Assembly: GCA_963780865.1 (NCBI GenBank)
Contig: CAWADT010000006.1
Coordinates: 20,858-84,857 of the forward strand
DNA from: an uncultured Chloroflexia bacterium
Lineage (GTDB): Bacteria; Chloroflexota; Anaerolineae; Anaerolineales; RBG-16-64-43
Direction of reading: 5' to 3'
Length of the DNA stretch: 64,000 bases
How positions within the stretch are numbered: position 1 is the stretch's first letter; the number at the start of each line of letters is the position of its first letter. The notes below the pieces were generated by a model, which saw only the letters and a program-made list of their open reading frames with translations, searched no databases and had not been told where the DNA came from. The position numbers and the translations under genes were made by a program. Positions 7,077-60,696 of this stretch are shown in pieces.

Positions 7077-7237
7077 GAAAGGCTGAGTAGTTACGAATTC
7101 ATTTAAAATTGTTTTCCCGCGCCCGCCCTCGCGCAGCGGGGGAAATCCGTTTCTTTCCGGTACTCCGCGTACTGCATTTTCCAAGTTGAGTCATTGCCAC
7201 TTACTTTGTATGGTGGTCGGTCAACCGCTCCATCGGA

Positions 7238-8559: not shown

Positions 8560-9390
8560 ATGGCCACAAAAATAATCTGGATGTACTGGCATCAAGGTTG
8601 GGAACAGGCGCCGGATTTGGTGAAGCAATGCGCCGAATCCTGGCGTTTGAAAAACCCCGACTTCGAGATTTATTTGCTGGATCGAAACTCGGTGACGGAT
8701 TATGTTTCCTTGCCAAAGGAAATTACCTTTCGCCGCAGGAAACTCACGATTTAAAAGAATTCCAACCTAATCCGATTGGCTTTGCTTTCCAAATATGGAG
8801 GGGTTTGGTCCGACGCTTCCGTTTTCTGCAACCGGTCCTTGGGCGGATGGCTTGGCGAATATTATGGCTCCCTTTTTTTTGCTTTTCGAAATCCCGGAAA
8901 GGATCGCCTTTTAGCGAATTGGTTTCTCGCGGCAGAATCGGAAAGCGTCATCCTGCAGCGGTTATATGCCCGGTATTCGAAATATTTTGCCGATAATTCT
9001 TTCTCGAACCAAGGCACGGCGTTGGGGAAAATGCTCGTTAACTATTTCAACCGTCGATGGAACGCGGATTATCGAACCACGGGAAAATGGCTCTCCTGGT
9101 TTGCGCGAAAGATATTGCGCGTTTACCCGTATTTTATTTTTCACTACACTTTTAATCAGCTTATTCTCACCGACCCGGAATGCGCGGCGCTTTGGAATAA
9201 GGCCAAACCGTTTCCGGCCGAACCATTGCTAAGAATAAAATATCTCGATCCATCAGAGGATGGCTTGCTTCAGGCCAAACGCGAAATAGACTCTCGACTC
9301 GCACCTATGCACAAATTAAATTGGCGGATTGATAGTACAAGCAGCTTCTGGGCTACCGTGCTTCAATATTTACACGGGCAAACCGAATAA
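8560..9390 (+). pseudogene. Caps_synth-type capsular polysaccharide glycosyltransferase, copy 1, with an in-frame TAA at 8752-8754
   Basis: ORFs 8560-8754 and 8776-9390 share one frame and align end to end with the intact paralogue 10149-10979. Motifs IWxYWHQGW and LLSKYGGxWxDASV are present. TAA replaces the paralogue's CAG (10341-10343). Confidence 0.75.
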
Positions 9391-9471
9391 GCAGTATGCC
9401 TCCCAACGCCTAGCCTTTTTAATCTCATCGTGGAAAAAAGAATATCGCCGGCAATGGAGGAGTCCCCCGGT

Positions 9472-9810
9472 TTATGCGTCCGCTAGAGTTCGGCTGCCTT
9501 CAGTAGAGGTGGAGGGGGAAATCGATATACAGAATTCCGGAAATTGATAATCGCCGAGGTATCCGGTTTGCACATTCCACATGGCGTCCTCTGCGAGGCG
9601 CGTGTCCGATTCGGCGGGATAGCGGTGCGTGGAGAGATCGTCGGAGGGAATCATCGGCCGGGGGGCAAGCCCGAGTTTTTGCTAGAGGGTGTTAAAAACT
9701 TCGGCAAGATTTTCCTGCCGCCCGATAAAGAAAAAATCACCTTTCCGTAGGGATAAAAACTCTTCATTTTCAAACCAGTATTAGTATGAATCAAAAACGT
9801 GCTGGATGCC
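9472..9810 (-). pseudogene. C-terminal relic of a sulfotransferase, copy 1, with in-frame stops
   Basis: Translation ...IQHVFDSY*YWFENEEFLSLRKGDFFFIGRQENLAEVFNTL*QKLGL...PSDDLSTHRYPAE...DYQFPEFC parallels 11057-11395. Stops at 9781-9783 and 9682-9684. Confidence 0.5.
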
Positions 9811-9996
9811 AGGCACGCCCACTGCCTTCACTACAGGGGCGCAGCCGCACACGGTGTTGGGATGTCCGCCCATCTTGAGCGCTTCCAGTTTCTGGATCAT
9901 CAGCGCTAGCCCGACGCGGTCGTCGAATGACTTGCAAAGATAGGTTTTGCCGCTGGAGAGCGCCACGAGCCCCGCCTGCGGGACGACCGAATCGCC
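9811..9996 (-). pseudogene. internal fragment of the M42 peptidase gene, created by the segmental duplication
   Basis: GDSVVPQAGLVALSSGKTYLCKSFDDRVGLALMIQKLEALKMGGHPNTVCGCAPVVKAVGVPG matches peptidase residues encoded at about 7664-7850. Confidence 0.6.
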
Positions 9997-10148
9997 GTTC
10001 TCCATGCCGGATAGATTTTTATCGTGGATTTGTCGGGCTTTGAATAGATTGGATATAATGGGCAGCAACGCGCTTGTTTATGTCATTGAAAAAATAGTGT
10101 GTCCGTTGGAATCGGGGAGGATATTCTGCCTTCGGCAATCAGGATGAA

Positions 10149-10979
10149 ATGATTACAAAAAAAATCTGGCTTTACTGGCATCAGGGCTGGGAAAAAGCGC
10201 CGGATTTGGTGAAGCAATGCGCCGATTCCTGGCGTTTGAAAAACCCCGATTACGAAATCCATTTGCTGGATCAAAATTCCGTGGCCGAATATATTTCCTT
10301 TCCAAAGGAAATTGATTTTCGGCGCAAGAAACTCACGGTTCAGAAGATTTCAAATTTAACCCGATTGGGCTTGCTTTCCAAATATGGTGGGGCGTGGGCC
10401 GACGCTTCCGTCTTCTGCAACCGGCCGTTAAGCGAATGGCTGGGGGAGTATTATGGCTCCCATTTTTTTGCTTTTCGAAACGCCGCGAAGGACCGGATAT
10501 TATCCAATTGGTTCCTTGCGGCGGAATCGGATAGCGTCATCCTTCAGCGATTGTCGGAGAGGATGTTCAAGTATTTTTCGGAAAATTCCTTTTCGAACCA
10601 AGGCACAAATTTTGGGAAATTGCTACTAAAATACTTCAACCTTCGATGGAACAAGGATATCCAGAGCACACGAAACTGGCAATCCTGGTTCGCGCGCAAG
10701 ATGTTGCGCGTTTACCCATATTATATTTTTCACTACATCTTTAACGAGCTCATATTCACCGATTCGGAATGCGGCGCGCTTTGGAATCAAGCTAAGCCGT
10801 TTCCCGCCAGACATACGCTGAGATTAAAACGACCGGAGGAATCAGAGGAGGAGATTCTCCGCGCCAAACGCGAAATAGATTCCCGCCTCGCGCCCATGTA
10901 TAAATTAAATTGGCGGATAGATACTACGAGCGCCTTCTGGACTACCCTGCTCGAGTATTTGCGGGAACAACCGAAATAA
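10149..10979 (+). CDS. Caps_synth-type capsular polysaccharide glycosyltransferase, copy 2 (intact)
   Basis: 276 aa uninterrupted. KIWLYWHQGWEKAPDLVKQC...LLSKYGGAWADASVFCNRPL. Confidence 0.8.
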   Translation: MITKKIWLYWHQGWEKAPDLVKQCADSWRLKNPDYEIHLLDQNSVAEYISFPKEIDFRRKKLTVQKISNLTRLGLLSKYGGAWADASVFCNRPLSEWLGEYYGSHFFAFRNAAKDRILSNWFLAAESDSVILQRLSERMFKYFSENSFSNQGTNFGKLLLKYFNLRWNKDIQSTRNWQSWFARKMLRVYPYYIFHYIFNELIFTDSECGALWNQAKPFPARHTLRLKRPEESEEEILRAKREIDSRLAPMYKLNWRIDTTSAFWTTLLEYLREQPK

Positions 10980-11056
10980 GCCGTATCTCTACCGATGGCT
11001 TGAGGTTTTCGGCCCGAACAAAACGGGATTATTTTTCCGGGAAGTGACTTCTATCC

Positions 11057-32963: not shown

Positions 32964-33730
32964 ATGTGGACCGGACGAAGAATCCCCTACCTGTATAATA
33001 AATACCTTCGAGGAGTCCGTCTGGATAAATCGCCCATCTTCATTGTTGGATGCGGCCATAGCGGCACTTCCCTGATACATGCAATTCTGGATTCCCATTC
33101 GAGAATATTTGCCATTCCTCCCGAGACTCGCGTCGGATTTAGAAAAATCCCGAGCCTTGGTTCCGTACATTCGCCTTTGCGACCATTAGCGCCGGGAAAC
33201 GCCGCTGGGTGGAGAAAACTCCCAAGCATATCCATCGGATGGAATACCTTTGGCAATTGCTCCCGGATGCAAAATTCCTTCTCGTCCTGCGCGATGGGCG
33301 GGATGTAGCTTGTTCCATCCAAGAACGAACGGGAGATTTGGAGTCCGGGATCCGGCGATGGGTGACAGACAACCTGGCCGGGGAGAAATATTGGGGAAAT
33401 CCGCAGGTTTGCTTGGTCCGATACGAGTTGCTTATCCTTGAATTCGAGAATACCATTGCCCGCATTCTGGATTTTCTCGGAGAGGAATATGAGGTTGGAT
33501 TAAAAGAATATTACCGCAAGCCCCGATTATTCTATGCGGATGTCATTGAAAAACCGGCCGGTATTTTTGGGGATAACCATGCTCAATACCGCAATTGGCA
33601 GATTAATCAACCGCTCTTCGATGGCCGTGGAAAATGGATGCGGATGACCGGAGAAGAGAAGCGTGTTTTCAAAGTATTGGCCGGCGAATTGCTGGAAAGA
33701 TACGGCTATGCCGACGGGATGGATTGGTGA
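32964..33730 (+). CDS. sulfotransferase; one frame break in an A5 run
   Basis: PIFIVGCGHSGTSLI (PSB loop) lies in ORF 32937-33308. WVEKTPKHIHRMEYL...FLLVLRDGRDVACS lies in ORF 33209-33730. The join is at AAAAA 33143-33147. Confidence 0.7.
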
Positions 33731-34158
33731 TTTTTCCTCGGTCCGTTATCCGCGCATTGCCGATTCGCAAAAGTCTTTTCTCCCGTCTCCCCTTTTTCGG
33801 GAAAAGATCGCCTTTGCCGAAAATCGCTGAGATATGATTGATGAAATGTATCGGCTCAGGCATAAACAATTTGTACGCGGATTTCTCGGAGAGCCGGATT
33901 TCCCGGAGGAATAGAAAAAGTATTATTCTCCCCTCATCTTGGAATTATCCGTAAAATCCGGAGAATCCGCGCAATCCGCGTACTGTTGATTTGAGATACA
34001 GGAAGTGCCCGAGTAGATACGATGAAATCATCCGAAAGGAAAAATATTTTCGGGCGATCTTCGGGTAGAATTAGCAGGGACAATTCCTGAAGCGGAGTTG
34101 GGGACGATGGGATTGGCATCGATTCGAATCCTGCGGGAGGAAGGCGCGAGGCTCCGGA

Positions 34159-34887
34159 ATGTCTTGGAACAGATGGTTCGGTGGGAAGAACGATAACCCG
34201 TCGCTGCCGCAAAACCGGAAAAGCATTCGGGTCCGCCCGATTCACGGTTGCGATGTTTTTCTGGATATTAACCATCGTCTTCCCGGGCTATCCATGGAGA
34301 CGATCTTTGATGTTGGTGCAAACATCGGACAATCGGCTCAGGAATACCGGCGCCGCTTTCCAGCGGCCGATCTGTACTGCTTCGAACCGGTGCCTTCCAC
34401 GTTTCAAGAGCTTTGCAAGAATCTGGAGGTATCGGATAAAACTCACGCCTTTCCACTGGCTTTTGGTTCCAAGCCGGGGCGCGTCGGCGTCGTCCTCCAA
34501 TCCCATTCTTCCATTAATTCCTTGCTGAATACAGTGGAGCCACCGTTCCCGGAAGGAATCCAGGCGGAAATCGTTGATGTCGACACGATGGATAATTTCT
34601 GCCGCATCCACGAGATCTCGCAGATGGATTATCTGAAAATCGACACCGAAGGCTATGATTTGGAAGTATTAAAGGGAGCGGAGGACCTGTTGCAACGGCG
34701 ATGTGTGACGTTCATTCAGGTCGAAGCCGGAATGAACCCGTACAACCAAAAACATGTCCCCCTGAAAATCCTCCAGGATTTCCTGGAGGCGCATCACTAT
34801 GTGTTGTTCGGCCTGTATGACCAAACGTTTGAATGGCGCGGCGAGGCCAGGTTGCGCTTCCTCAACGCCGTTTTCATCCTTTCCTAA
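34159..34887 (+). CDS. FkbM family methyltransferase
   Basis: IFDVGANIGQSAQEY ... YCFEPVPSTF ... MDYLKIDTEGYDLEVLKGA. Confidence 0.8.
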   Translation: MSWNRWFGGKNDNPSLPQNRKSIRVRPIHGCDVFLDINHRLPGLSMETIFDVGANIGQSAQEYRRRFPAADLYCFEPVPSTFQELCKNLEVSDKTHAFPLAFGSKPGRVGVVLQSHSSINSLLNTVEPPFPEGIQAEIVDVDTMDNFCRIHEISQMDYLKIDTEGYDLEVLKGAEDLLQRRCVTFIQVEAGMNPYNQKHVPLKILQDFLEAHHYVLFGLYDQTFEWRGEARLRFLNAVFILS

Positions 34888-34952
34888 TTTCCCGGCGGGA
34901 GGAGCGCTGCGTACGGCCAGCGGCGGGTTCTCTCCGGAAAAAGGAAATATCC

Positions 34953-35729
34953 ATGAAGCAAACTCCCGCATTTTATTTCGACATTCTGGAATTGCTTTCC
35001 CGCGGACGGTGTCCGGCGTGCGAGCTCACGCGCAGCAAAGCGATGCATTACATCGACCACGCCCTGTACGGGCTGGTGACCGACCCGCACGCGCAAAATT
35101 TGTTCGCCGACACCGGCGGGTACTGCCGCCGGCACGGCGAGATGCTGCTGAAAATCCCCTGGGGCTCGGCGCTGGGCGTGGCCATTCTCTATAACCGCCT
35201 GATCGAAGACGCGGCCGAGGAATTAAAAACCCAGCAGAACGAATCCGCCGCCGGAGAAAAGCGCGGCGCTCCCGCGTTGAGGTTGTTCCCGGCCAAAAGC
35301 CGCCGAAAGCCTCTCGTACGCGGCGATAACCCGGATTGTCTGGCCTGTAAAGTGGAGCGCGAGACCGAAGACGGCGTATTGCACACGCTGGTCGAATCCA
35401 TGCGCGCTGGGGACGAGCGCATGCTCGCGGCGGTGGGCGGCTCGGAGGGATTCTGCCTGTACCATCTGGACCGGATGCTGAAAGATCCGCTGCCCGGGAA
35501 AGTGGAAACGGCGTTGCGGCGCCATGGGTTGCGGCGGGCCGAGCAGTTGCTTGCCGAGTTGAAGGAATTCATGCGAAAGAGCGATTACCGGTTCACGGGG
35601 GAGCCGATGGGAGCGGAGGGCGACAGCTGGACGCGGGCGGTCGCGTGGGTGACGGGAGTGGGCATGGAGAAGGATGAACCCGGATCGCATCCGGGGGATT
35701 TAAAAAGGCAGATGCGGGGGGAAGGGTAG
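34953..35729 (+). CDS. Cys-rich hypothetical protein with two CPxC...C-x2-H units (resembles the DUF6062-type pattern, from memory)
   Basis: Start at ATG 34953 (MKQTPAFYFDILELL). CPACEL...GGYCRRH and CLACKV...EGFCLYH. Confidence 0.6.
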   Translation: MKQTPAFYFDILELLSRGRCPACELTRSKAMHYIDHALYGLVTDPHAQNLFADTGGYCRRHGEMLLKIPWGSALGVAILYNRLIEDAAEELKTQQNESAAGEKRGAPALRLFPAKSRRKPLVRGDNPDCLACKVERETEDGVLHTLVESMRAGDERMLAAVGGSEGFCLYHLDRMLKDPLPGKVETALRRHGLRRAEQLLAELKEFMRKSDYRFTGEPMGAEGDSWTRAVAWVTGVGMEKDEPGSHPGDLKRQMRGEG

Positions 35730-39789: not shown

Positions 39790-39973
39790 TACGCGTGGGT
39801 GGGATCGCAAAGCTCTATGGTCGTGGTCTATAGTAGATGCAGCCGGGATCGACGATCCCGGCTACGAGGAAAAACCAACCGACGCGGCCTAGAAGACGAG
39901 TCCCAGCTCGGAAAACACTGCGTAGTCTATCGCGGCGCAGAAAACTGCACCGGGAGTGGAATAACGAGTATTA

Positions 39974-40006
39974 AAACCGACGCGGTCTTTTAGACCGCGT
40001 CGGTTT
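39974..40006. terminator. bidirectional stem-loop aaaccgacgcggtc-tttta-gaccgcgtcggttt
   Basis: 14-bp perfect stem flanked by A and T runs, between convergent pyrF-E and the WXG100 gene. Confidence 0.6.
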
Positions 40007-40079
40007 GCATGTGCAAGGCTGTTTATTTAGAATCTAGAATTATCCGTGAAATCCGTGTTTTACCCGTGCCCCCCGTGAT

Positions 40080-40337
40080 TTATTTCTCCTGCTCTGCCGT
40101 CATCCTCCGCAGTTGGTCCGCGGATTTCTTCATCGCGGCGGTATGCAGGTCGACGCCCTTGCGCCAGTCGCCGTAGAAGCGGAAGAACGCTTTTTGCGCG
40201 TCGCCCTGCCATTTCGGCTCCACTTCCTTGACGGCTTTGGCGATTTTTTCCGCCGCGTTCTGGATTTGGGCGTTTGCTTCGTCAATTTCCTTAAGGAACT
40301 TGGTGATCTCTTCGGGATTGAAATCGATAACGGCCAT
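40080..40337 (-). CDS. WXG100 (ESAT-6-like) family protein
   Basis: 85 aa, two predicted helices with a central W-Q-G (EPKWQGDAQKAFFRFY). Confidence 0.8.
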   Translation of the reverse strand: MAVIDFNPEEITKFLKEIDEANAQIQNAAEKIAKAVKEVEPKWQGDAQKAFFRFYGDWRKGVDLHTAAMKKSADQLRRMTAEQEK

Positions 40338-40358: not shown

Positions 40359-40688
40359 TTAACCACTGCCTCTTTGATAAGCTTCCCAATCGGGATTGAC
40401 GTACTGCTCCCGGCGGGTAACCTTGATCGTGCGGAAATATTTTTCCTGCTTGATCAGATTTTCAAGCTGGGGGATGATTTTCCTTTTATGAGGATCGATC
40501 TCGGAGATAAAAGAATCCTTCCGGTGCCCCTCCCAGTTGAAATCCAAAAACTTGGCGGAGGATTCCACCCTGTCCTTTTCCATGGTTAATAGGTGGATCT
40601 GCGCGAGAATTTTATCCGCCAGGCGGTCAGCCTCGGGCGGATGGAAGAGGACATCACGATATAGGTATTGTGGAGGTATGGAAGCCAT
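40359..40688 (-). CDS. WXG-like small helical protein, probable partner of 40080-40337
   Basis: 109 aa. Central NWEGHRKDSF (W-x-G). Located 21 nt upstream of the WXG100 gene on the same strand. Confidence 0.55.
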   Translation of the reverse strand: MASIPPQYLYRDVLFHPPEADRLADKILAQIHLLTMEKDRVESSAKFLDFNWEGHRKDSFISEIDPHKRKIIPQLENLIKQEKYFRTIKVTRREQYVNPDWEAYQRGSG

Positions 40689-40799
40689 TGGTCCCCCAAA
40701 TACATAGTTGAAATGGATTATAAATCATGATATTATCAATGTCAATAGATCACCGGCAAGTTTATAGAATTATTTTCAGAACGACAAAGAGGGGACATT

Positions 40800-41630
40800 A
40801 TGGCGCGCATCCGGGTCGATACAGACGATCTTAAAGCCAAAGCCAAGGATTTCGAAACGGCCGCCAATGCATTTAACAAGGCAGGCGATGAGATCGCCGC
40901 CGCCGCGATGGGGATGCCGAGCTACGACGGCCAGCTTTCGGGCCCGGCCCGCGCGGCGGGATACGAAATCCAGCGCCAGAGCCGGGAAGTGCAGGCCCTC
41001 CTCGCTGGCGATGCGCAATCGCTGCAAAAGACGGCGCAGGCGTTTGAAGAGGCGAATAATCAGGCCATTGATGCATTTGGACAAAACCAAGAATTACTTG
41101 CCTCACATACCCCTGATAAGCTGCAAGGAATTGATATCGGAAATGCCTATCTTGGGTACCGGGATGATGGTCTGAGTGAGACAGTTATCCTATGTATGTA
41201 TGGCGTTTGCAATGTAATCCCGCGCAAGGGTAATGAATTGGTTATTGCAGACTTTGAGAAAAAGGTCGATGATTATGTGAAAGATGAGAAAACAATGTGG
41301 GATGAATGGAATAAAACTGTAGAGGCGGCGGTTATCGCATCGGGTTTATTAATTGGATTAACAATCATTACGGGAGGAACTGCTGCATTCGTCGCCGCAG
41401 GTTTGGGGGCGGCAGGTTCCATAGGTGGTGAAATCCTTGAATCGAAGGCCTGTAAAGATGCTCAGACAGATATGGCGAAGGATACTTATGGTGCAGCCTA
41501 TTACTGGAACATAATGTTTGGAAGCAAGGGTCTTGGACCGTGTACCACAGGGGATGATATTCAGGATCCAGTTGATCTTTGGAAACGGCAAAATCAAGAT
41601 ATTTATGATCCAACGGCACCTTGCACTTAA
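40800..41630 (+). CDS. polymorphic-toxin-like protein: WXG100/LXG-like helical N-domain plus an AT-rich C-terminal domain with a glycine-zipper membrane segment
   Basis: N-terminal 90 aa form a helix-turn-helix hairpin (RVDTDDLKAKAKDFETAANAF...SYDGQLSGP...LQKTAQAFEEAN). The C-terminal part carries AAVIASGLLIGLTIITGGTAAFVAAGLGAAGSIGG. RBS AGAGGGGA precedes the ATG. Confidence 0.65.
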   Translation: MARIRVDTDDLKAKAKDFETAANAFNKAGDEIAAAAMGMPSYDGQLSGPARAAGYEIQRQSREVQALLAGDAQSLQKTAQAFEEANNQAIDAFGQNQELLASHTPDKLQGIDIGNAYLGYRDDGLSETVILCMYGVCNVIPRKGNELVIADFEKKVDDYVKDEKTMWDEWNKTVEAAVIASGLLIGLTIITGGTAAFVAAGLGAAGSIGGEILESKACKDAQTDMAKDTYGAAYYWNIMFGSKGLGPCTTGDDIQDPVDLWKRQNQDIYDPTAPCT

Positions 41631-41664: not shown

Positions 41665-42161
41665 ATGGACTTTCATCAAATATTAATTTATCTCAATGGG
41701 TTATTCTTTCTTGTAGCGGCATTATTCCAATTTTATCTTTTGCTGCGAGGCAGAGTTTTTTAATTAGATTAAGTATTCTTTTTTTACTTTGTTGTTTCCT
41801 AAATTCATGGATTATTCTATTGGATCTATCCTCATCTCGGGGTTTTGATTTATATGAAGGTCTCCTATTATGCCTACTTATTTTCATATTTATTGTTGTC
41901 CTCTTGGACGAAAGACAACGGAGAATATTCTTTGGGATTAGTCTAAATCATTTTATGTTGGCAATTAATGATTACCTAAATAAGAACGATTTGAAATATA
42001 AAAAAGAATCATTGACGATTATATCTATTAATAATCCCCTAATAGTATTTGATCTCAAGCCTATTCTAGGAAACCTTGGAACAATGATATCACGAAGAAT
42101 GGATAAGAATATAAAGGAGGATTCAAATTACAACCATTATTTTCCAATAGAATCTGATTAA
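41665..42161 (+). CDS. small polytopic membrane protein, candidate immunity protein; probably needs a 1-nt correction in a T6 run
   Basis: ATG 41665 gives MDFHQILIYLNGLFFLVAALFQFYLLLRGRVF*. A shift in TTTTTT (41756-41761) continues as LIRLSILFLLCCFLNSWIILLDLSS...LLLCLLIFIFIVVLL (ORF 41820-42161). Confidence 0.4.
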
Positions 42162-42171
42162 GAATATTAAA

Positions 42172-42273
42172 ATGAATTGGCCTAGCAAAATATCCATATT
42201 CTTGCTCTTTTGTATTTTTTCTCTGCTTCTATATATATTTTTAATTTCAAATGGAATTCACATTTCGTTTTGA
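42172..42273 (+). CDS. 33-aa hydrophobic peptide (speculative)
   Basis: MNWPSKISIFLLFCIFSLLLYIFLISNGIHISF. A single TM-length segment, too short to score. Confidence 0.2.
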   Translation: MNWPSKISIFLLFCIFSLLLYIFLISNGIHISF

Positions 42274-42295
42274 CATTTATTGAGGAGGAAAAAAA

Positions 42296-42925
42296 ATGGA
42301 AAACCAATCTTATAAATTATCGAAGCGGGCCGAGGGCTATTTTTCTACCATAAAAGAAAAGATGATGGAATTGAATGAGAAGATGGAATCCAATTTACTA
42401 TTAGTGAAAGATGAAAACCAATATGTACATATTGTTATTAATGGTAAGCAAAGAATTCAATCAATGGTAATTTCGGATTTATTACTAAATTCAAAAGATA
42501 AGCAAGAAGTTTGTCGATATCTTCTCGGAATAATCAATTCCGCAATACAAAAATCCAATTTTGATAACCTAATAAATGCGCAAAAAACTATTTCGGTTAA
42601 AGAATATCATGAAATGATTAATCAGGAAAAACAATCTATAACTGAAACAATAAAGGGAATGGAGAAGTCATTTCAGGCGGAATTGAATGAATTAGCATAT
42701 ATTAAGAAACATACGATTTCGGACGCCGGAAATATATCAGTGGTGATGTCTGGATTGCAGCAAATACAATTATTGGAAATTGATCCTCTCTATATTACGA
42801 GTGAAAACAAAAATAAGTTAATAAATGAAATTATTGAGGTTGTTAATAAAGCCACGATTGAAATTCAAAAAGAAGCTATTGATAAAATAAAGCAACAAGA
42901 TAATGAGTTATTACAATTATATTGA
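42296..42925 (+). CDS. protein made of two tandem YbaB/EbfC-like domains
   Basis: Domain 1: IKEKMMELNEKM...ENQYVHIVINGKQRIQSMVISDLLLNSKDKQEVCRYLLGIINSAIQKS. Domain 2: ISDAGNISVVMSGLQQIQLLEIDPLYITSENKNKLINEIIEVVNKATIEIQKE. Both follow the E. coli YbaB pattern G.V.V..NG......v.IDP.ll..d...LedLi..A.N.A. RBS GAGGAGGA. Confidence 0.6.
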   Translation: MENQSYKLSKRAEGYFSTIKEKMMELNEKMESNLLLVKDENQYVHIVINGKQRIQSMVISDLLLNSKDKQEVCRYLLGIINSAIQKSNFDNLINAQKTISVKEYHEMINQEKQSITETIKGMEKSFQAELNELAYIKKHTISDAGNISVVMSGLQQIQLLEIDPLYITSENKNKLINEIIEVVNKATIEIQKEAIDKIKQQDNELLQLY

Positions 42926-42997
42926 TATAATTAATTAATGAAAAACATTTAGTGATTAATTGCAATCTCCGATAGCAATATTATCAATAAATCCTGT

Positions 42998-43918
42998 TTA
43001 CACCGCTTTTCCAATCAGCTCGCGTATCGATTTCACCCCATGTTTCAGTAAATATTGTTGCATTCCCTTCGCCGTCGTTTCAAACACGTTCGGCTGACGG
43101 AACATCGCCGTTCCGATCCCGACGCAGGTTGCGCCAGCCAGGATGAGCTCAAGCGCCTCCTCCGCGTTCGTCACTCCGCCCAGGCCGACGATGGGGATGT
43201 TGTTTTTCTTGCAGCAGGAGGTGTAGCATTTGTACACCGCGTACACGGCCACAGGGTGAATGCCTATCCCGCTCAAGCCTCCGATCCGGTTTCCAAGCGC
43301 CGGTTTCTGCGTCTCCACGTCGATCGCCATGCCGCGCAGCGTGTTGATCACGCACAACGCGCCCGCCCCGCCGCGGATCGCCGCCTGGGCGATCGCGGCG
43401 ATGTCGGTAACGTTCGGCGTCAGCTTCACGATCAGCGTCTTCCCCAGCACCACCTTGCGGACCCGCGCGACGAGATCCTCGAGCACCGCTTCATCGCAGC
43501 CGAATTCGATCCCGCCCTTTTCAAGGTTCGGACACGATACATTGAGCTCAATCGCATGGATTTCCTCGCGCGGGGCGAGGATTTCCGCGCACTGGACGTA
43601 TTCGTCGATTTCGGATCCGGAGACGCTCGCGATTACGGGAACCTCGAGCTTCCGCAGCTTGGGGATTTCCTCCGCCACGAAAGCGGCGATGCCCGGGTTC
43701 TGTATCCCGATCGCGTTAAGCATCCCGGCCCGCGTTTCGACGATGCGCGGTTCCGGATTGCCCGCCCGCGGATGGAGCGAGACGCTTTTGAGCACGGCCG
43801 CGCCCATCCAGGGGCGGCTCGCGGCGAGCGCTTCATAGTCCAGGCCGTAGACGCCCGACGCCGAGAGCAGCGGGGTCTCCAGACGCAGCGATCCGAGACG
43901 GGTTTCTAATCCTTCCAT
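42998..43918 (-). CDS. pyrD: dihydroorotate dehydrogenase (class 1B) catalytic subunit
   Basis: Start at ATG 43918 (MEGLETRLGSLRLETPLLSASG). NAIGIQNPG, ELNVSCPN, GGLSGIGIHPVA. Confidence 0.9.
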   Translation of the reverse strand: MEGLETRLGSLRLETPLLSASGVYGLDYEALAASRPWMGAAVLKSVSLHPRAGNPEPRIVETRAGMLNAIGIQNPGIAAFVAEEIPKLRKLEVPVIASVSGSEIDEYVQCAEILAPREEIHAIELNVSCPNLEKGGIEFGCDEAVLEDLVARVRKVVLGKTLIVKLTPNVTDIAAIAQAAIRGGAGALCVINTLRGMAIDVETQKPALGNRIGGLSGIGIHPVAVYAVYKCYTSCCKKNNIPIVGLGGVTNAEEALELILAGATCVGIGTAMFRQPNVFETTAKGMQQYLLKHGVKSIRELIGKAV

Positions 43919-44911: not shown

Positions 44912-45424
44912 TCAAGGAAATCGCCGATACGGTGCGAAGGGCCTGGGAAGATCGGCGTCCGGAGCGGTATCTCTATGACGCCACGCGCAAAAGCGGCGTT
45001 CCAATTCAAGATAGGAAAGGCCGCCCCATTCGGAAACGGTTCCGTCGCGTCCCAGACTCGCAATTCGAATTTCGGTTTTTCCAAATGTGAAACCGACGCT
45101 CCGTTTTGCAGACGTCTTCCAGGCGATTTTTCCGGGAATGTTTTGCGAAGAGCGGACGGAATAACCAAGCGCTTTGCCCCACTCGCCAAGCAGGGCGGCG
45201 GTCCGTTTCCGCCGGTGGCGCAGAATTTCCGCCACCGTAAGGCTTTGGCGAATGGCGGATACGTCCTCCACCGTCAGGCCGTCTTGGCTAAGACGTTCGA
45301 CCGCCAGATGGCGGGCGGCGGCTATGTCGTCCGGGCTCCCCGCCGCGAGCGATTCCGCGTCGAGGACGATCCGGCGCCAATCTCTCTGGGATGTCCCTTC
45401 GCCCGGCAGTCTTGCCTTTTCCTT
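44912..45424 (-). CDS. unresolved open frame between the methyltransferase and pyrK; possibly the methyltransferase C-terminus after a frame slip
   Basis: A frame open for 171 codons reads KEKARLPGEGTSQRDWRRIVLDAESLAAGSPDDIAAARHLAVERLSQDGLTVEDV...GKALGYSVRSSQNIPGKIAWKTSAKRSVGFTFGKTEIRI. No family recognised. It begins at the A4GGA4GG tract where the methyltransferase frame turns to nonsense-like sequence. Confidence 0.3.
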   Translation of the reverse strand, partial: KEKARLPGEGTSQRDWRRIVLDAESLAAGSPDDIAAARHLAVERLSQDGLTVEDVSAIRQSLTVAEILRHRRKRTAALLGEWGKALGYSVRSSQNIPGKIAWKTSAKRSVGFTFGKTEIRIASLGRDGTVSEWGGLSYLELERRFCAWRHRDTAPDADLPRPFAPYRRFP

Positions 45425-47016
45425 TTAATGAACGCTAGCTTGTCGTTCCGATAGCGCGCGAAGGGGGCGGCTGCGGGAAGGAGAATTTCATCGATCGGAG
45501 ATTCCGGAAGGGCGGCAATTTCTTCCCGATCGAGCCGTTGGTAAAAAGACCGCAGGATTTTATCGGCCGTGATCTTATTGCCATAGAGGCCGAACAATTC
45601 GCGTGCCGCGGCGGCCGCCTTTTTATGGAGCCTTTCCGCAGGAACTCCTATGACCGGCCCCGTTTGTTTTTTAATTACCGGCGCGCGCACCACGTATCCG
45701 CTGTTTTGCGATCCGTTGCCACCCGTCCCTGGCTGGTAGTGGATGTGTTCCGCCGCCAATCCGCCGCTCGCAAGGATGCCCAGGAACTGCGGAAAAAATT
45801 TTCCGCCGGAGTTTGCGCAGAAAAAATGCGCGCAGCTTCCTTCCTTGGCGACGCGGTGGAGCGCGCGTACAACGATGGACATCCGCTCGCGGTATTGATC
45901 GACGCTCCGGCCGCTTTCCGGGGCAATGACAATTTCCCGGCTGTGATCGAATTCCATCTTCAGCCAGGCCGCCTGGATGGCCGGCAGGAGGAACATGTCT
46001 CCGGGGGCTTCGAACGGCGGTTCCGTCAACACATAGTCGATGGAATTCTCGGGTAGTTCACAAATCAACGCATCCTCGGCGGATTTCCCCAGGATCACCA
46101 CGCTGGCCTGCCGCGATTCCAGCTCTCCATAACCGTAGCCAATCGTGGCGCGGTTTAAAACGGAATTGCTTTCCTTTTTTCCGTCGTAAATTCTTTGGAA
46201 GCTCCCGGCAAACGCGTCCCAGGGGTTTGCCACCGTGCATTTTTGCACCCCGCTTCGCCGGACCGATTGTTTTTCCTTCGCACGGCCCCGCGCAGCGGCG
46301 GTCGCCCGAGGAAGCAGCGGAAAGGGGCAATGGCATGCGGCCAAAGAGGAAGCGAAGGCTGATTTCATCGCATCCCGGACGGAAGGTTCGGTGATATTGT
46401 TGATCGAATTTAAAATGATGGAGAACGCGGCAACCGTCCGGCGGCGAAGAAAATCAGCGGGATACCCCCAGCTTGCGTCCGGATTCACCGGTAGGGGTAG
46501 GCGGGTCGGATGCCAGAAGGGGATGTCCGTGTCCGCGTTCTCCACTTCCACCCGCCGGTCGCCCGCATCGGGTGTTTTCGAAAGCCTTGCCGGGGAACAG
46601 GGGCAGGAATAATCCAACCGGGTTAGTTTCCCGTTTTCCCGGTGAAGGACATGCACGATGCCTTTTTTACCGCATTTCGGGCAGGTTGTCGCGAACAGTT
46701 CGGAGATCACGTCCCGGCAAGTTTCGCGGAGGTCCTCGTAAGCCCATTGCAGCCTCGGGAGGCTGACGGGAGTGAAAACTACTTCGGTGAAAAAGGATGC
46801 CAGGGGACTGGGATCAGTCGTCACCGCCCGGCGGCCCAAGCGCAAGGCTTCGATGGCCGTGGTTCCGTTGCCGCCGAATGGATCGAGGACGACGTCGCCT
46901 TCGTTGGTGTATGCGCGGATGAGTTCCGCGGCCACCGCTGGGGGCAGGTTTCCGCCGCGGGGATGCATCGCTTGGATCGGGTCGCTGCCGGCGCCGGCCG
47001 GCAAATCAGATTCCAT
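45322..47016 (-). CDS. Zn-ribbon-containing N6/N4 DNA methyltransferase-like protein with permuted motif order (AdoMet motif first, then xPPF)
   Basis: HPRGGNLPPAVAAELIRAYTNEGDVVLDPFGGNGTTAIEALRLGRR (motifs X-I), CPKCGKKG...CPC (Zn ribbon), IDYVLTEPPF (motif IV-like, with E instead of D/N/S). Confidence 0.7.
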   Translation of the reverse strand: MESDLPAGAGSDPIQAMHPRGGNLPPAVAAELIRAYTNEGDVVLDPFGGNGTTAIEALRLGRRAVTTDPSPLASFFTEVVFTPVSLPRLQWAYEDLRETCRDVISELFATTCPKCGKKGIVHVLHRENGKLTRLDYSCPCSPARLSKTPDAGDRRVEVENADTDIPFWHPTRLPLPVNPDASWGYPADFLRRRTVAAFSIILNSINNITEPSVRDAMKSAFASSLAACHCPFPLLPRATAAARGRAKEKQSVRRSGVQKCTVANPWDAFAGSFQRIYDGKKESNSVLNRATIGYGYGELESRQASVVILGKSAEDALICELPENSIDYVLTEPPFEAPGDMFLLPAIQAAWLKMEFDHSREIVIAPESGRSVDQYRERMSIVVRALHRVAKEGSCAHFFCANSGGKFFPQFLGILASGGLAAEHIHYQPGTGGNGSQNSGYVVRAPVIKKQTGPVIGVPAERLHKKAAAAARELFGLYGNKITADKILRSFYQRLDREEIAALPESPIDEILLPAAAPFARYRNDKLAFIKRKRQDCRAKGHPREIGAGSSSTRNRSRRGARTT

Positions 47017-47387
47017 TTTGCAGGGTGCGAAGGATCCTGGTCATTGGCGTTTTCCGGACCGTCGCGCGTGGTGATGGTCTATTTCGCCCGCCCGCGAGTC
47101 CGTGAATGGCAGACATTGTTGTGAATCAATGGGATATTCGATGGTTATATTATTGAGTGAAGGGAAGAAGAATAAAGGTGCGCTCATACTCCAGGCCGAT
47201 TACGAACCATTGCAATTTCCCGCAATCGTAAAAAGCCGCTCGCTCCGGTCTTCCTCGCGATTATATCAGGTCCAAGACTTGCCCAAGATAATATTGTGGT
47301 TTTTATAGGGTAATTCGACGATTTCAATACTTTTGCCTCTAACAGGCTGCTGAAAAACGTTGATTTTGTTTTGGGCATCCACGCCCG

Positions 47388-47440
47388 CCCCCCTTTCATC
47401 CCCCCATTTTCCATTGGAAAATGGGGGGATGAAAGGGGGG
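47388..47440. repeat. long perfect-stem hairpin cccccctttcatccccccattttcc / ggaaaatggggggatgaaagggggg
   Basis: Read directly from the sequence. Flanked by a second inverted pair (caggctgctgaaaaacg at about 47343-47359, gtttttcaacaacctgc at about 47481-47497), giving a roughly 150-bp MITE-like unit. Confidence 0.6.
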
Positions 47441-47543
47441 ATGGTTTCCCACAGGGAAGATAACACCAGCATGAATTGAGTTTTTCAACAACCTGCTAAA
47501 ACAATCGAAAAACTGGCTCTTGACAAAACGCCATATTATTTAT

Positions 47544-47577
47544 AAGATACTATCACGATATATCGTGATAGTATCTT
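47544..47577. promoter_or_regulatory. perfect 34-bp palindrome, candidate PadR operator, with TTGACA at 47520-47525
   Basis: aagatactatcacgata|tatcgtgatagtatctt ends 4 nt upstream of the RBS (AAGGAGG) and 15 nt upstream of the TTG start of the PadR gene. Confidence 0.5.
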
Positions 47578-47591
47578 GAAAAGGAGGTAGC

Positions 47592-48080
47592 TTGAGTCGA
47601 TATTCGCATTTCGGGAAGGAAAGCCATTTCGGAAAGGGGGACATCAAATACGTCGTGCTGGACCTGCTGCGCGAAAAGCCTTCCTACGGCTACGAGATCA
47701 TCCGCGCTTTGGAGGAGAGGTTCGGGGGACTCTACACTCCCAGCGCGGGGACCGTTTATCCGACGCTTCAGATGCTGGAGGAAATGGGGTACGTTACCTC
47801 CAACCAGTCGGACGGAAAGAAAAACTACACCATCACGCCCGAGGGAATCCATTTCCTGGAGGAACAGAAAAGCCAACTGGCGGACGTGCGCGAACGGATG
47901 CACGGCTGGTGGGACCGGCGAACCGCGTCGGAAGAGGTGCACGAGGTTTTGGATATGTCGAAGAATTTGCGAAAACTGATTAAGCAACGCCGCCGGGCCA
48001 TCAGCCCGGCGAAATGGCAGCAAATCCGGACGGTGCTCGAACGCGCCTACCGGGAAATCGAAGTTCTGTTGAACGACTAA
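47592..48080 (+). CDS. PadR family transcriptional regulator
   Basis: YVVLDLLREKPSYGYEIIRALEERFGGLYTPSAGTVYPTLQMLEEMGYV, a winged-helix PadR signature. Confidence 0.85.
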   Translation: MSRYSHFGKESHFGKGDIKYVVLDLLREKPSYGYEIIRALEERFGGLYTPSAGTVYPTLQMLEEMGYVTSNQSDGKKNYTITPEGIHFLEEQKSQLADVRERMHGWWDRRTASEEVHEVLDMSKNLRKLIKQRRRAISPAKWQQIRTVLERAYREIEVLLND

Positions 48081-57508: not shown

Positions 57509-59998
57509 CTATTCTTTGGGATGTTCGGCGTGCATCGTGCGCAACGCCCACAAGGCTTCGAAGGCCGGGCTGCGCACGGAACTTTCGCCGTCGCTCAATC
57601 CCATGCACAAATCCTGAAGGAACCGGTTCTCGGCCATGGCACCGAGCGCTTCCACCGCGGCGGCCCGCTGGCGCGGTTCGCCCTCGCGGATCGCGCGCTC
57701 GAGCATGGCCAGGGTGGGCGCGCCAGGCGCGAGGCCCGTCTTTCGCTGTGCGGCAAACGACACCAGCCAGGGCAAATTCGCGGGGGATGGCATGGGAACC
57801 AGCGGGCTTTCGGATTCTCCATGCAGCCGTTCCACGGCCTGCGCGGCCGCCGACTTCACCGCCCACTGTCCGTCTTCTATCTGCACCCGTTCGAGGATTT
57901 CCAGCGCCCAGGGTTGTCCGGTGCGCGCCAGACCGAAGACCGCAGCGCGGCGGACCAGTAGTTCCGCGTCCTGGATGGCTTCCCGCAGGATGCCGTGCCC
58001 TTCGATCGGATCCAGGGATAGTCCCTCGGCGACGGCGCGGCGCAGATCGTCCTCGCCCTGAAGGAGGGTTTGGCCCAAGACGTCGATGGCGGCGTGGGAA
58101 GCGATCCGGCCGAGGGCCAGCGCGCCGGCCCAGCGCAACTCCCGCGAATCGGATTCCATTTGTTTGGAGAGCAGCTCCACAGCGCTCTGGTCGGCCATCG
58201 CCCCCAGGCCCAGCGCCGAAAGGATCCGTGCTTCCAGGTCGGAATCCGGAGCAGAGAGAAGCTGCCGAAAAAGCTGGGTGGCGGATGAGTCGCGGCTGTT
58301 GAGGAATGCGGCCAGCGCCCGGGCGCGGAGCGGAAATGGCTGGCTGGGAGTGCGCACCACTTTCATCAACCGGCGGAAAACCTCCACGCGCCATCCGGCG
58401 GTGGGCGGGGCATCGCGCAGCCAGGCGGCCACGTGAAGCAGTTTCCAGCCGTCCTCCACCAGCGGCGGCATCCGCGGCTCGCCGGATGCGGCCTCGCCTT
58501 CCTTTATTAAGGTTGGCGTGAGCCGGGCCGAGACGAGCGTGGCGACGTCGGTTTGCGCCGCCAGCGCGGTAGCCGAAAGCTCCGCCAGAGGCGTGCGGGA
58601 GCTCGCGAGAAACGCCGGCAGGTTTGCCTCGTTGCCCAGGGCGAGGGAGGAAAGCCGCGCGGCGATGACGATGTGGCCGAAGCTGACCCGCCCGGCGGGC
58701 CGTTTGCGCAACACGCCATGCGTGATCATCTCATCGAAGAAATCTTCCACGGGCGGGAGTGATTGTTCCGAATGCGGCCAGGCCAGCGCCATCGCGGTTT
58801 CCACTTGCTTGCGCGTGGGGGCGGAAATATTTTCGGCGATCATCCCCCGCACCACCTGGGCCAGGGCTTCTTCGGCGGCCGGAGGCAGGTGGCGGGTGAC
58901 GTAGGCTTGTTGGTCGGAAGCCGCCGTCGTTCCCTGCAAATCCCCGCTGAAGGCCGCCCAGGCTCGGAGGGTGATATCGAGCGGTGAAAGGCCAAGCGTT
59001 TGCCGGGAGAGCCAGCCGAGCAGCAATGCGGGATCCGCCTTTTCGGTCGTCTTCCGGTCCGAGACCACGATTTCCTGCCAGCGCTTCCCCCATTGTTCCA
59101 GGAACCTGCGATGATCCGCGGGCAGCCAGGGGGCCGGAGTGGCGACCGCGAACCCCATCGGCCGCCAGTGATTGATTTCCTCGGGATCGACCGTGATGAT
59201 CAGCCGCGCCTTCGGATATTGGGCCATCAGCGAGCGGACCCACTCGCGCACTTCGTCCTGGGCGGAGTAGGAGAGCTCGTCGACGGAATCCAGGAGCAGC
59301 AGCGAACCTTCGCTTTTTAGGTTGCCCTTCAAGTAAGGGGGAATTTGAGACGCGGAAAGGGTGGAGGCGTAGTGCTGGATGGCCGACTCCAGCGGCACGA
59401 GCGCATCTTTGGTTGAATTCGGCAGGGTCAGATCGTGCGCGTTAACATAGAATAGCGATTTGGGAATTCCGGCGGCCGGGGCGCCCGTCTCCACCGACCG
59501 GCGCAACCACTCGAGGGTCAACGCGGCGAGCACGGTCGACTTGCCGCTTCCCGGCAGACCGGCCAGGAGAAGTTGCGGTTTGAGCGAAAGCAACTGCGTG
59601 ACGGGGATTCCGACCGTGCCGTACGATTCGGCGAGCTGCGGCCAATCGGGTGCGAAGGGGAAGAGGGTCGGCGCGTCGTATTCCGGGGGCTGGTCCGGAT
59701 CCAAAGGCGGCGGAGCGGCGAGAAGGCGCGGCGGAAGCAGGATCTCTTCCAGCGCAAACAGGTGGGTGACCATGTGCGACGATTGGGCCCACCGCATCAG
59801 GTCGTTGCGATACCCCTGGGCTGCCGTGGTGGTTAAAGCTTCCAGGGCGGTCCGGTAGGATTCCCCCATGGCTTCCCGGAACGATGCGATCCGCGGGCGG
59901 AGCCGGAAGAGCACGAAGGCCAGCAGGACGGCGAGGAGGAATCCGATCCAAAAGGAAAGCGAATCAAATCGCCAGTCGGTGAGGAATTTCATGCTCAT
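57509..59998 (-). CDS. STAND NTPase: N-terminal TM helix, NACHT-like P-loop module, C-terminal HEAT-type repeats
   Basis: Walker A GLPGSGKSTVL, Walker B LLLLDSVDEL, C-terminal repeated ...RRAA...ALG... units. Start at ATG 59998 (MSMKFL) overlaps the upstream TGA as ATGA. Confidence 0.75.
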   Translation of the reverse strand: MSMKFLTDWRFDSLSFWIGFLLAVLLAFVLFRLRPRIASFREAMGESYRTALEALTTTAAQGYRNDLMRWAQSSHMVTHLFALEEILLPPRLLAAPPPLDPDQPPEYDAPTLFPFAPDWPQLAESYGTVGIPVTQLLSLKPQLLLAGLPGSGKSTVLAALTLEWLRRSVETGAPAAGIPKSLFYVNAHDLTLPNSTKDALVPLESAIQHYASTLSASQIPPYLKGNLKSEGSLLLLDSVDELSYSAQDEVREWVRSLMAQYPKARLIITVDPEEINHWRPMGFAVATPAPWLPADHRRFLEQWGKRWQEIVVSDRKTTEKADPALLLGWLSRQTLGLSPLDITLRAWAAFSGDLQGTTAASDQQAYVTRHLPPAAEEALAQVVRGMIAENISAPTRKQVETAMALAWPHSEQSLPPVEDFFDEMITHGVLRKRPAGRVSFGHIVIAARLSSLALGNEANLPAFLASSRTPLAELSATALAAQTDVATLVSARLTPTLIKEGEAASGEPRMPPLVEDGWKLLHVAAWLRDAPPTAGWRVEVFRRLMKVVRTPSQPFPLRARALAAFLNSRDSSATQLFRQLLSAPDSDLEARILSALGLGAMADQSAVELLSKQMESDSRELRWAGALALGRIASHAAIDVLGQTLLQGEDDLRRAVAEGLSLDPIEGHGILREAIQDAELLVRRAAVFGLARTGQPWALEILERVQIEDGQWAVKSAAAQAVERLHGESESPLVPMPSPANLPWLVSFAAQRKTGLAPGAPTLAMLERAIREGEPRQRAAAVEALGAMAENRFLQDLCMGLSDGESSVRSPAFEALWALRTMHAEHPKE

Positions 59999-60696
59999 CC
60001 CAAGTAGAGGATCCGCCCGCAATTACCGCATTGAATGATTTCCTGCCCGGAACGGGCGGAGTCGACGCGCGCCGAAGAGGGGGCCACCCCGCAGGCGCCG
60101 CAGGCTCCGCTTTCAAACCGGACGACGGCCATTCCGTGCTTGCTCCGCCGCAGGGCGGAATATCTTTCCAGGTCTTCCGGAGTCACCGCGGAAACGGCCG
60201 CTTCCCGCTGGTATCCAATCGTCTCGAGGGTGGATTGCACAACGGCTCGTTCCGCGAGCAGCTTCTCGTCCAGTCCGGACCGCAACCGCTCCTGCTCCTC
60301 CCGCGCCGCTTGCGCGGCGGCCACGGCTTTCTCGGATTCTTCGCACCGCATCATCGATTGCAATTGCCGTTCCTCAAGCACCGCGAGGTACCGGCGCAAC
60401 GAGGCGGATTCCTCTTGCACTTCCTGCAATTCCTTGGGGTTGCTCACGCCGCCGCCGTACAGCGTTTTATCGGTTTCCGCTATCCGCTGCTGCTGGCTCC
60501 GGGTTTCTTCCTCGGTTCGATGAAGATCCTTTTTCGCGTCGTCCCACAGGGCGCGCGCGGCTTCCTCCTCCGCTTGCGCGCGGTCCAGATCCGGATGCTG
60601 CTTGAGGCCCGTCTCGATATCCGACAGCCGCGCCTGATGGGAATCGATTTGACTGTCCAGGGTTTGCAATCGGAAAAGGTTGGAAATACGCGTCAC
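59995..60696 (-). CDS. coiled-coil protein with a C-terminal C4 zinc ribbon (COG1579/DUF164-like)
   Basis: NLFRLQTLDSQIDSHQARL..., long heptad region, CGACG...CGNCGRILY. GTG start at 60696 is preferred over TTG at 60726. Confidence 0.7.
   Translation of the reverse strand: MTRISNLFRLQTLDSQIDSHQARLSDIETGLKQHPDLDRAQAEEEAARALWDDAKKDLHRTEEETRSQQQRIAETDKTLYGGGVSNPKELQEVQEESASLRRYLAVLEERQLQSMMRCEESEKAVAAAQAAREEQERLRSGLDEKLLAERAVVQSTLETIGYQREAAVSAVTPEDLERYSALRRSKHGMAVVRFESGACGACGVAPSSARVDSARSGQEIIQCGNCGRILYLG

Follow-up and report, generated by a model that had tools for sequence, protein, structure and literature searches.

We describe here a protein in which two YbaB/EbfC units are fused in a single chain and which is probably a specific partner of the C-terminal domain of a neighboring putative toxin rather than a nucleoid protein. 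YbaB/EbfC proteins are generally treated as homodimeric nucleoid proteins. The gene is an open reading frame (ORF) of 209 amino acids (aa) on the forward strand (positions 42296-42925) of a 64,000-nucleotide (nt) stretch of DNA from an uncultured Chloroflexia bacterium of the order Anaerolineales (contig CAWADT010000006.1), hereafter called the window. At every locus where its context was inspected, this gene followed the same type of putative toxin, and it diverges together with the C-terminal domain of that toxin.

Two YbaB units in one chain

The ORF, whose start is the first ATG following a stop codon, matched the Pfam model PF02575 (YbaB_DNA_bd) over two stretches (E-value 1.7e-15, 57.4 bits, cut-off 25.5), and each half exceeded the same cut-off when scanned singly (Table 1). 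The score against the NCBIfam equivalog TIGR00103 was below the cut-off (40.3 vs. 49.45 bits), which indicates that the tandem YbaB is not an ortholog of the housekeeping protein. No similarity between the N-terminal and C-terminal halves was found by BLASTP. Profiles of the two halves, based on 27 family members, were nevertheless aligned in register by hhalign over 83 columns (probability 98.2%, E-value 4.7e-14, 13% identity), and the internal duplication is therefore real and ancient.

The structure predicted by AlphaFold2 from the family alignment (predicted local distance difference test [pLDDT] 90.7, predicted TM-score [pTM] 0.84) presented the alpha-beta3-alpha unit twice with a short linker helix between the copies. 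The high pTM of the whole chain implies a fixed mutual arrangement of the two halves and, together with the two-fold topology, suggests that the protein may form a single-chain pseudo-dimer, i.e., a tweezer in one chain. When this model was compared to the Protein Data Bank (PDB) with Foldseek, the top matches were all YbaB/EbfC structures (1j8b, 3f42, 1ybx, 1pug, and 5yrx), with TM-scores of 0.66-0.86 over ~85 columns, i.e., one half, as obtained against single PDB chains. Searching the PDB sequences with the family profile matched the N-terminal half to HP0035 of H. pylori (3f42, E-value 5.7e-6) and the C-terminal half to 1j8b, 1ybx, and 1pug (E-values 4e-8 to 1e-7). The grand average of hydropathy of the protein is -0.45 and no hydrophobic N-terminus, transmembrane (TM) segment, or export signal was seen by inspection of the sequence, suggesting a soluble, cytoplasmic protein. 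The possibility of a chance ORF in AT-rich DNA was rejected based on the strong ribosome-binding site, the profile matches, the confident fold, and the existence of a conserved family.

Exhaustive scanning of 1.84 billion representative proteins with HMMER (E-value of 0.001 or better) yielded 29 relatives. Two of these are fragments and the others are 197-228 aa long and aligned from end to end. Because all full-length relatives are tandem, we consider the tandem form to be the defining architecture of this family, which is rare. Word-indexed searches recovered the query alone, or three proteins when the family profile was used, such that the exhaustive scan was needed to obtain the family. 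PF02575 was matched by all 27 aligned members, and the invariant or near-invariant residues across the family are generic YbaB motif positions (S142, G153, K172, E178, N81, and N184). By our own mapping onto the characterized EbfC protein (PMC9610160), N81 and N184 both correspond to EbfC N77, which is the one residue reported to affect EbfC dimerization (PMC9610160) and is thus kept in both halves. Public databases name the members "DNA-binding protein YbaB" or [quoted passage not shown], and the named members come from metagenome-assembled genomes (MAGs) of Anaerolineales. No description of a tandem or pseudo-dimeric YbaB was found in our literature searches.

An earlier sequence-only reading of the window had recognized two consecutive YbaB/EbfC patterns in this ORF. 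The profile matches of each half, the agreement of the half-profiles, and the Foldseek matches of the full-length model all bear this out, and the literal EIDP that it had pointed to in the second copy is present at residues 161-164. The same reading did not recognize a fused double version in such a position; the protein is not a one-off and belongs to a small and consistently tandem family.

The toxin C-terminal domain, membrane gene, and tandem YbaB move together as one low-GC cassette

The gene that precedes the cassette's membrane gene and the tandem YbaB encodes a putative toxin of 276 aa led by a WXG100/EspC-like helical hairpin. Foldseek matched the model of this N-domain to EsxA (3zbh, TM-score 0.83) and to 2vs0 (TM-score 0.79). 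The protein's own Pfam WXG100 score is 14.5, below the cut-off of 27.3, and among 35 toxin homologs PF06013 was matched by 24 and PF10824 (EspC family) by 17. The turn of the N-domain reads SYDG in place of the W-x-G of WXG100 proteins. This domain is common to 79 clusters, many of which match just the first 33-46% of the query, and the relatives carry names such as "type VII secretion target [Anaerolineales]", "YukE", and "TIGR04197 effector". Their C-termini are unrelated in many cases and include calpain-like (PF00648) and HExxH types. A shared N-terminal third followed by unrelated C-termini indicates the architecture of a polymorphic toxin. In the window, the C-terminal domain consists, in order, of a small beta unit (residues 112-141), a long helix, a Gly/Ala-rich hydrophobic hairpin (residues ~172-205), a helix with the conserved AAYYWN motif, and an [IV]Y[DE]P tail. 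The hairpin, together with the match of one related toxin to PF20712, a 2-TM effector domain (25.9 bits, cut-off 24.3), suggests that the 276-aa protein may be toxic; at an E-value of 0.01, PF20712 was matched by none of the 35 aligned relatives. A short beta motif ([YF]-L/I-G-Y ... I-x-[LIF]-[CW] ... G) is near-universal after the N-domain whatever the C-terminal type (40800-41630 in the window and proteins P0041-P0118), and many homologs end in [IV]-Y-[DE]-P or in long Pro/Thr-rich tails.

We inspected the genomic context of ten family genes: those of the window and of loci L002, L007, L010 (two cassettes), L011, L014, L016, L017, and L020. Without exception, the tandem YbaB gene is located downstream of, and co-oriented with, a homolog of the 276-aa toxin, and all ten toxins belong to the same C-terminal group ("YLGY-beta / 2-TM / AAxxWN"). 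Genes for WXG proteins of 85 aa and ~109 aa are encoded divergently upstream of the toxin wherever the contig is long enough. The chromosomal neighbors vary from one locus to the next (arabinose/fucose genes, priA and rpsB-tsf, a GGDEF gene, or pyrimidine genes), and the conserved unit is therefore the module and not the site. The WXG-type toxin that the sequence-only reading had placed next to the YbaB gene is thus supported by its EsxA-like N-domain model and its WXG100 neighbors, and the arrangement extends to every family gene that was surveyed. Searching for related loci with the toxin alignment gave a single genome match, an Anaerolineales MAG whose contig ends just past the toxin, and no related locus was found in the metagenome collection with this alignment.

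The cassette usually contains a third gene, which the sequence-only reading had not listed. In the window, a gene for a 4-TM membrane protein between the toxin and the YbaB gene is broken by two frameshifts, at ~41755 (in a T-run) and ~42160, into ORFs of 32, 113, and 33 aa. Using the intact protein of L010 as a query, tblastn recovered its pieces in order: frame 3 for residues 1-32, frame 2 for residues 20-163 (E-value 4.6e-39), and again frame 3 for residues 174-208. The frameshifts could reflect a true pseudogene or homopolymer errors in the assembly. Intact homologs are found between the toxin and YbaB genes in L007, L010, L014, L017, and L020, so that a 4-TM protein of ~140-215 aa occupies this position in seven of the ten cassettes. 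It carries a soluble insert of ~80 residues between TM3 and TM4.

The association of the tandem YbaB with one C-terminal group was evaluated with six toxins that share the same N-domain and represent five other C-terminal types (P0093 and P0105 being one type). The gene downstream encodes a 128-aa 4-TM protein for P0116 (L019), a 202/206-aa protein with an N-terminal TM segment for P0093/P0105 (L019/L020), a 92-aa TM protein for P0107 (L020), a 291-aa polytopic membrane protein for P0082 (L021), and a 268-aa lipoprotein-like protein for P0118 (L022). The tandem-YbaB profile matched none of the downstream genes of these six toxins, and YbaB is therefore specific to one C-terminal group. The hypothesis that YbaB is a general accessory of the WXG100 module or of the N-domain was rejected on the same grounds. 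The downstream genes of these other cassettes also present a reduced GC content (0.36-0.41).

Sequence divergence follows the same partition. Across eight complete loci, the mean pairwise identity was 83% for the WXG100 gene, 66% for its 109-aa partner, and 68% for the toxin N-domain, compared to 33% for the toxin C-terminal domain and 28% for the tandem YbaB. The identities of YbaB were correlated to those of the toxin C-terminal domain (Mantel test, rho = 0.78, p = 0.0035), with lower coefficients relative to the toxin N-domain (rho = 0.26) and WXG100 (rho = 0.16).

Remnants of other toxins were observed next to some of these cassettes. In L002, a 98-aa ORF (10600-10896) homologous to the C-terminus of another toxin subtype overlaps the 3' end of the YbaB gene by 25 nt. 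This displaced fragment marks YbaB as the last gene of the inserted C-terminal-domain cassette. In L020, a 67-aa orphan fragment of the N-domain (5586-5789) lies right behind the YbaB gene. Both orphan fragments look like footprints of cassette replacement by recombination.

Several loci present additional particularities. L010 contains two full toxin/4-TM/tandem-YbaB cassettes on opposite strands around one WXG100 pair (3453-8633); the toxin of the right-hand one (6437-7084) is shortened to 215 aa and ends inside the hydrophobic hairpin, with an intact membrane gene, which is the reverse of the situation in the window. In L014 (6765-10065), the tandem YbaB is followed directly by a 615-aa protein in which a coiled region rich in Ala, Glu, and Lys is accompanied by a TM segment and a C-terminal domain, then by two near-identical proteins of 150 and 154 aa and a 148-aa TM protein; these genes may represent another toxin with its array of immunity genes. 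Unrelated small TM proteins follow YbaB in L011 and L016. In the latter, whose cassette is without the 4-TM protein, the low-GC segment also encodes, convergently to YbaB, a zinc-ribbon protein of 102 aa that carries a TM helix at its C-terminus (Lar-like, E-value 5e-6, slightly below the cut-off; 10695-11003, minus strand).

Candidate functions of the tandem YbaB

Our results suggest, with a probability that we estimate at about 0.8, that the tandem YbaB is a protein binder specific to the toxin C-terminus and not a nucleoid protein. Given its place in the variable, toxin-specific part of the locus and its solubility, the protein is most simply interpreted as a specific protein partner of the toxin C-terminus. 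Physical binding, and the part of the toxin that would be bound, are predictions drawn from these sequence patterns. The fusion of the two YbaB units and their divergence to 13% identity fit the recognition of an asymmetric protein ligand.

Regarding the nature of this partnership, we lean by inference toward a chaperone over an immunity role, and a version in which the protein acts as a holdase and internal antidote is given slightly less than an even chance. The toxin would be exported by a type VII-like system through its WXG100/EspC-like N-domain, along with the two divergently encoded small WXG100 proteins. The fusion of two YbaB units would have left the arms of the tweezer free to diverge into an asymmetric clamp, and this clamp would grip the helices of the toxin C-terminus in the cytoplasm of the producer. 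The hydrophobic hairpin, which would need to be kept soluble before export, would then remain away from the producer's own membrane until secretion, and the tandem YbaB would be a dedicated chaperone and, at the same time, an internal antidote. Toxin coming from outside would be countered by the 4-TM protein, which is likely the membrane immunity protein of the cassette. We assign external immunity to this protein and not to YbaB because for TspA, a membrane toxin of a type VII secretion system (T7SS), neutralization is by a membrane protein and not by a soluble one.

Several observations weigh against this interpretation. The location of the gene right after the toxin and its co-variation with the toxin C-terminus constitute what is classically seen for an immunity gene. 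YbaB directly follows the toxin in both L011 and L016, without the conserved 4-TM gene in between. The hydrophobic hairpin was modeled at low confidence (pLDDT < 50 for residues 191-210), and no type VII ATPase (EssC/EccC) was found among the ten large ORFs scanned in the window. Several loci come from related metagenome projects and are not fully independent. Finally, when the outlier L002, the most divergent locus, was excluded, the Mantel coefficient dropped to 0.51 for the C-terminal domain vs. 0.44 for the N-domain, such that the contrast between the two domains is real but modest.

The sequence-only reading had proposed an immunity protein, a chaperone or adaptor, and a xenogeneic DNA-binding protein as candidate roles; this set appears to be the right one, although the last member is disfavored by the tracking of the toxin C-terminus. 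If the tandem YbaB were the classical cognate immunity protein, it would bind and inactivate the toxin C-terminal domain, including toxin delivered by siblings, and the membrane protein would be an accessory or a second immunity factor. It is indeed the only gene always downstream of this C-terminal type, including the two cassettes in which it follows the toxin without the conserved membrane protein, and each of the other C-terminal types has its own single downstream partner. It also diverges as fast as the C-terminal domain, and its conserved residues are generic structural motifs of YbaB alone, as expected for a fast-evolving binding surface. We nevertheless consider this close rival somewhat less probable than the chaperone version: YbaB appears to be soluble while the toxin looks membrane-inserting, most cassettes encode a polytopic membrane protein, and TspA, the characterized membrane toxin of a T7SS, attacks from the outside and has a membrane protein as its inhibitor (PMC7456083). 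Moreover, our literature search returned YbaB-like proteins of T7SS loci as chaperone-like stabilizers and found no YbaB-fold immunity protein (PMC6107294, PMC6109436, PMC6319747).

It appears improbable that the protein is a nucleoid-associated or regulatory DNA-binding protein of the YbaB/EbfC type that, for instance, controls or silences the expression of its own AT-rich cassette. The family is a true member of PF02575, whose characterized members bind DNA as tweezer dimers (PMC9610160, PMC2720974), databases annotate it as a DNA-binding protein, and the cassette has 29% GC in a genome of ~62% GC. However, cassettes of the same toxin family with other C-termini do not encode YbaB even though the GC content of their downstream genes is also reduced, and YbaB tracks the toxin C-terminus and not the locus. 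Indeed, this association with the variable C-terminal domain instead of the secretion domain or WXG100 favors a toxin binder over a xenogeneic DNA-binding protein. The low identity of YbaB relative to WXG100 would also be unexpected for a nucleoid protein, and arms of such low similarity suit an asymmetric ligand and are poorly matched to duplex DNA. A weaker argument comes from the EbfC DNA-contact lysines K82/K84/K88, which by our mapping onto PMC9610160 correspond to K/N/L in the N-terminal half and to E/Q/I in the C-terminal half, although DNA-binding YbaBs do not conserve these lysines either (PMC9610160). Less probable still is a scenario in which YbaB is the partner of the 4-TM protein instead of the toxin and docks on its cytoplasmic TM3-TM4 loop of ~80 residues to form a two-part immunity complex. 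The adjacency of the two genes in seven of the ten cassettes and the soluble insert of the membrane protein would fit, but YbaB persists in cassettes without this membrane-protein family (L002, L011, and L016), and the window combines a frameshifted membrane gene with an intact YbaB gene.

More tentatively, the toxin-binder reading can be extended to the fold itself. For this lineage and, by extrapolation, for ESX loci, the YbaB tweezer might be a clamp for protein helices and not for DNA, whose single-chain asymmetric form would grip the hydrophobic hairpin of the toxin as both export chaperone and cytoplasmic immunity factor. We regard this as a speculative proposal, appreciably below even odds.

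Genomic setting, known systems, and implications

In the window, the tandem YbaB gene closes an island of ~3 kb (Table 1). One flank carries dihydroorotase-like, aspartate carbamoyltransferase, and orotidine monophosphate (OMP)-decarboxylase/phosphoribosyltransferase genes, and the other carries the genes for the dihydroorotate dehydrogenase B subunits, such that the island interrupts an otherwise contiguous pyrimidine-biosynthesis cluster. The low-GC segment noted in the sequence-only reading was recovered, with a GC content of 0.28 at 42001-43000 vs. ~0.6-0.65 in the flanks. The GC content steps down at the junction of the toxin domains, the values being 0.61 for the N-domain, 0.44 for the C-terminal domain, and 0.29 for the two downstream genes, and a step at this junction is also seen in other loci. 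A perfect GC-rich inverted repeat (aaaaccgacgcggtc tttt agaccgcgtcggttt) at 39960-40010 marks the left edge of the island, where it separates the end of the OMP-decarboxylase/phosphoribosyltransferase gene from the WXG100 gene; it may act as a terminator in both directions.

Two WXG100-type genes and the WXG100-led putative substrate are found within 2.3 kb, and this layout is the same in every locus that is long enough. The 109-aa protein presented a weak match to TIGR03930 (E-value 0.099) and was not recognized by Pfam; its 107-109 aa counterparts (87 aa as called in L017) are paired with the 85-aa WXG100 gene wherever the contig extends far enough. Between this pair and the toxin operon, a sigma-70 consensus matching at 12/12 positions (TTGACA-17-TATAAT) faces the WXG100 pair (minus strand, 40745-40717) and a 10/12 site with an extended TG is found on the plus strand (40708-40736). 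A 12/12 match is unusual for a Chloroflexota genome of ~60% GC.

Table 1. Coordinates of the features of the island in the window
Feature	Position	Strand	Evidence
WXG100 protein, 85 aa, WQG motif, conserved small partner of the module	40080..40337	-	PF06013, E-value 5.2e-11, 43.1 bits, above cut-off
Second divergent WXG100-like protein, 109 aa, NWEG turn	40359..40688	-	alignable to the WXG100 gene at the W-x-G turn; same orientation as the 85-aa gene
Putative divergent promoter region, WXG pair vs. toxin operon	40708..40745	both	consensus matches
Toxin N-terminal WXG100/EspC-like helical hairpin, ~residues 1-94, conserved trafficking domain	40800..41080	+	GC 0.61 (host-like); AlphaFold2 helices 9-38, 47-101
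Toxin variable C-terminal domain	41081..41630	+	hydropathy, AlphaFold2 secondary structure, GC 0.44
4-TM membrane protein gene, ~200 aa, broken into three ORFs	41666..42274	+	tblastn, query the intact homolog from L010 (7320-7946)
Shine-Dalgarno sequence GAGGAGG of the tandem YbaB gene	42282-42288	+	7 nt 5' of the ATG, read from sequence
Tandem YbaB unit 1, residues 1-105	42296..42610	+	AlphaFold2 H10-32, E34-38, E44-49, E54-59, H69-98; PF02575 35.0 bits
Tandem YbaB unit 2, residues 106-209, with EIDP	42611..42925	+	AlphaFold2 H113-133, E137-141, E147-152, E157-162, H172-208; PF02575 31.9 bits

Further patches of lower GC content (0.47-0.52) occur in the window at 8000-11000, 33000-35000, and 47000-48000. 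A 564-aa N6/N4 DNA methylase (PF01555) is encoded just past the dihydroorotate dehydrogenase genes (45322-47016, minus strand) and an 837-aa NACHT-HEAT repeat protein at 57509-60022 (minus strand). A phage origin of the module was dropped from consideration as the viral structure library gave no match, and so was an anti-phage defense system, PADLOC having matched none of the module proteins.

Effector-specific cytosolic chaperones that coexist with a separate immunity protein are known from other systems: the Eag/DUF1795 chaperones of type VI secretion effectors with transmembrane domains and EsaE of S. aureus, which serves EsaD. Their folds are unrelated to YbaB, and Eag proteins bind N-terminal transmembrane domains and are encoded upstream, so the parallel is one of analogy without homology. 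Among type VII loci, known YbaB-fold proteins are limited to EspH, EspD, and EspL of mycobacterial ESX-1, cytosolic proteins that bind or stabilize particular substrates rather than act on DNA: EspH binds EspE, and EspD and EspL stabilize substrates (PMC6107294, PMC6109436, PMC6319747). YbaB/EspL-like genes also adjoin toxin genes in the ESX-4 regulon of M. abscessus (PMC13491425). The tandem YbaB resembles the Esp proteins in its fold and in its setting, a type VII/WXG100 locus beside a specific substrate. In contrast to EspL (115 aa) and to EspH and EspD, in which the YbaB-like part represents ~40% of the protein, all single units of Actinobacteria, it is a fused double unit from Anaerolineales-like Chloroflexota. 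Unlike the Esp proteins, it also forms part of a polymorphic toxin's variable C-terminal-domain/immunity cassette, and its sequence diverges along with the toxin C-terminus.

Both halves share the alpha1-beta1-beta2-beta3-alpha2 topology and the PF02575 match of canonical YbaB/EbfC proteins (1j8b, 1pug, 1ybx, 3f42, and 5yrx). The canonical proteins are DNA-binding homodimers of ~100 aa, whereas the tandem YbaB is a 209-aa single chain with dissimilar arms that evolves fast within a horizontally mobile toxin cassette. The cassette as a whole is reminiscent of TspA-TsaI of Staphylococcus aureus, a membrane-depolarizing T7SS toxin with its membrane immunity protein (PMC7456083). Both combine an N-terminal helical targeting domain, a polymorphic C-terminus (membrane-active in TspA and predicted to be so here), and a downstream polytopic membrane protein. 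The targeting domain is of the LXG type in TspA and WXG100/EspC-like here, no soluble YbaB-like third component has been described for TspA-TsaI, and toxicity, which has been characterized for TspA, is predicted here from the sequence. In Chloroflexota, ESX-like systems exist so far as predictions, made for several members of the phylum (PMC4010439).

Helper proteins of YbaB fold at type VII loci, like the cassettes of polymorphic toxins, belong to kinds of elements that were already known. What is new is the single-chain double YbaB, its place inside a C-terminal-domain/immunity cassette, the strict link between it and one C-terminal domain of membrane type, and its host group of Anaerolineales-like Chloroflexota. 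To our knowledge, type VII-like secretion has hardly been studied in Chloroflexota, and our results provide evidence for a WXG100-led family of polymorphic toxins with swapped C-terminal cassettes in Anaerolineales. They add a new partner family to the catalog of polymorphic-toxin cassettes and flag the database label "nucleoid-associated protein" as a systematic misannotation of the tandem family. A fused, asymmetric double YbaB that is tied gene-for-gene to one toxin C-terminal type also constitutes a compact system for testing the fold as a protein clamp. If the tandem YbaB does act as a clamp for protein helices, it would be, in Chloroflexota, the first immunity/chaperone family with a YbaB fold in a polymorphic toxin system, and would offer a one-chain model for the repeated recruitment of YbaB-like proteins by type VII loci.

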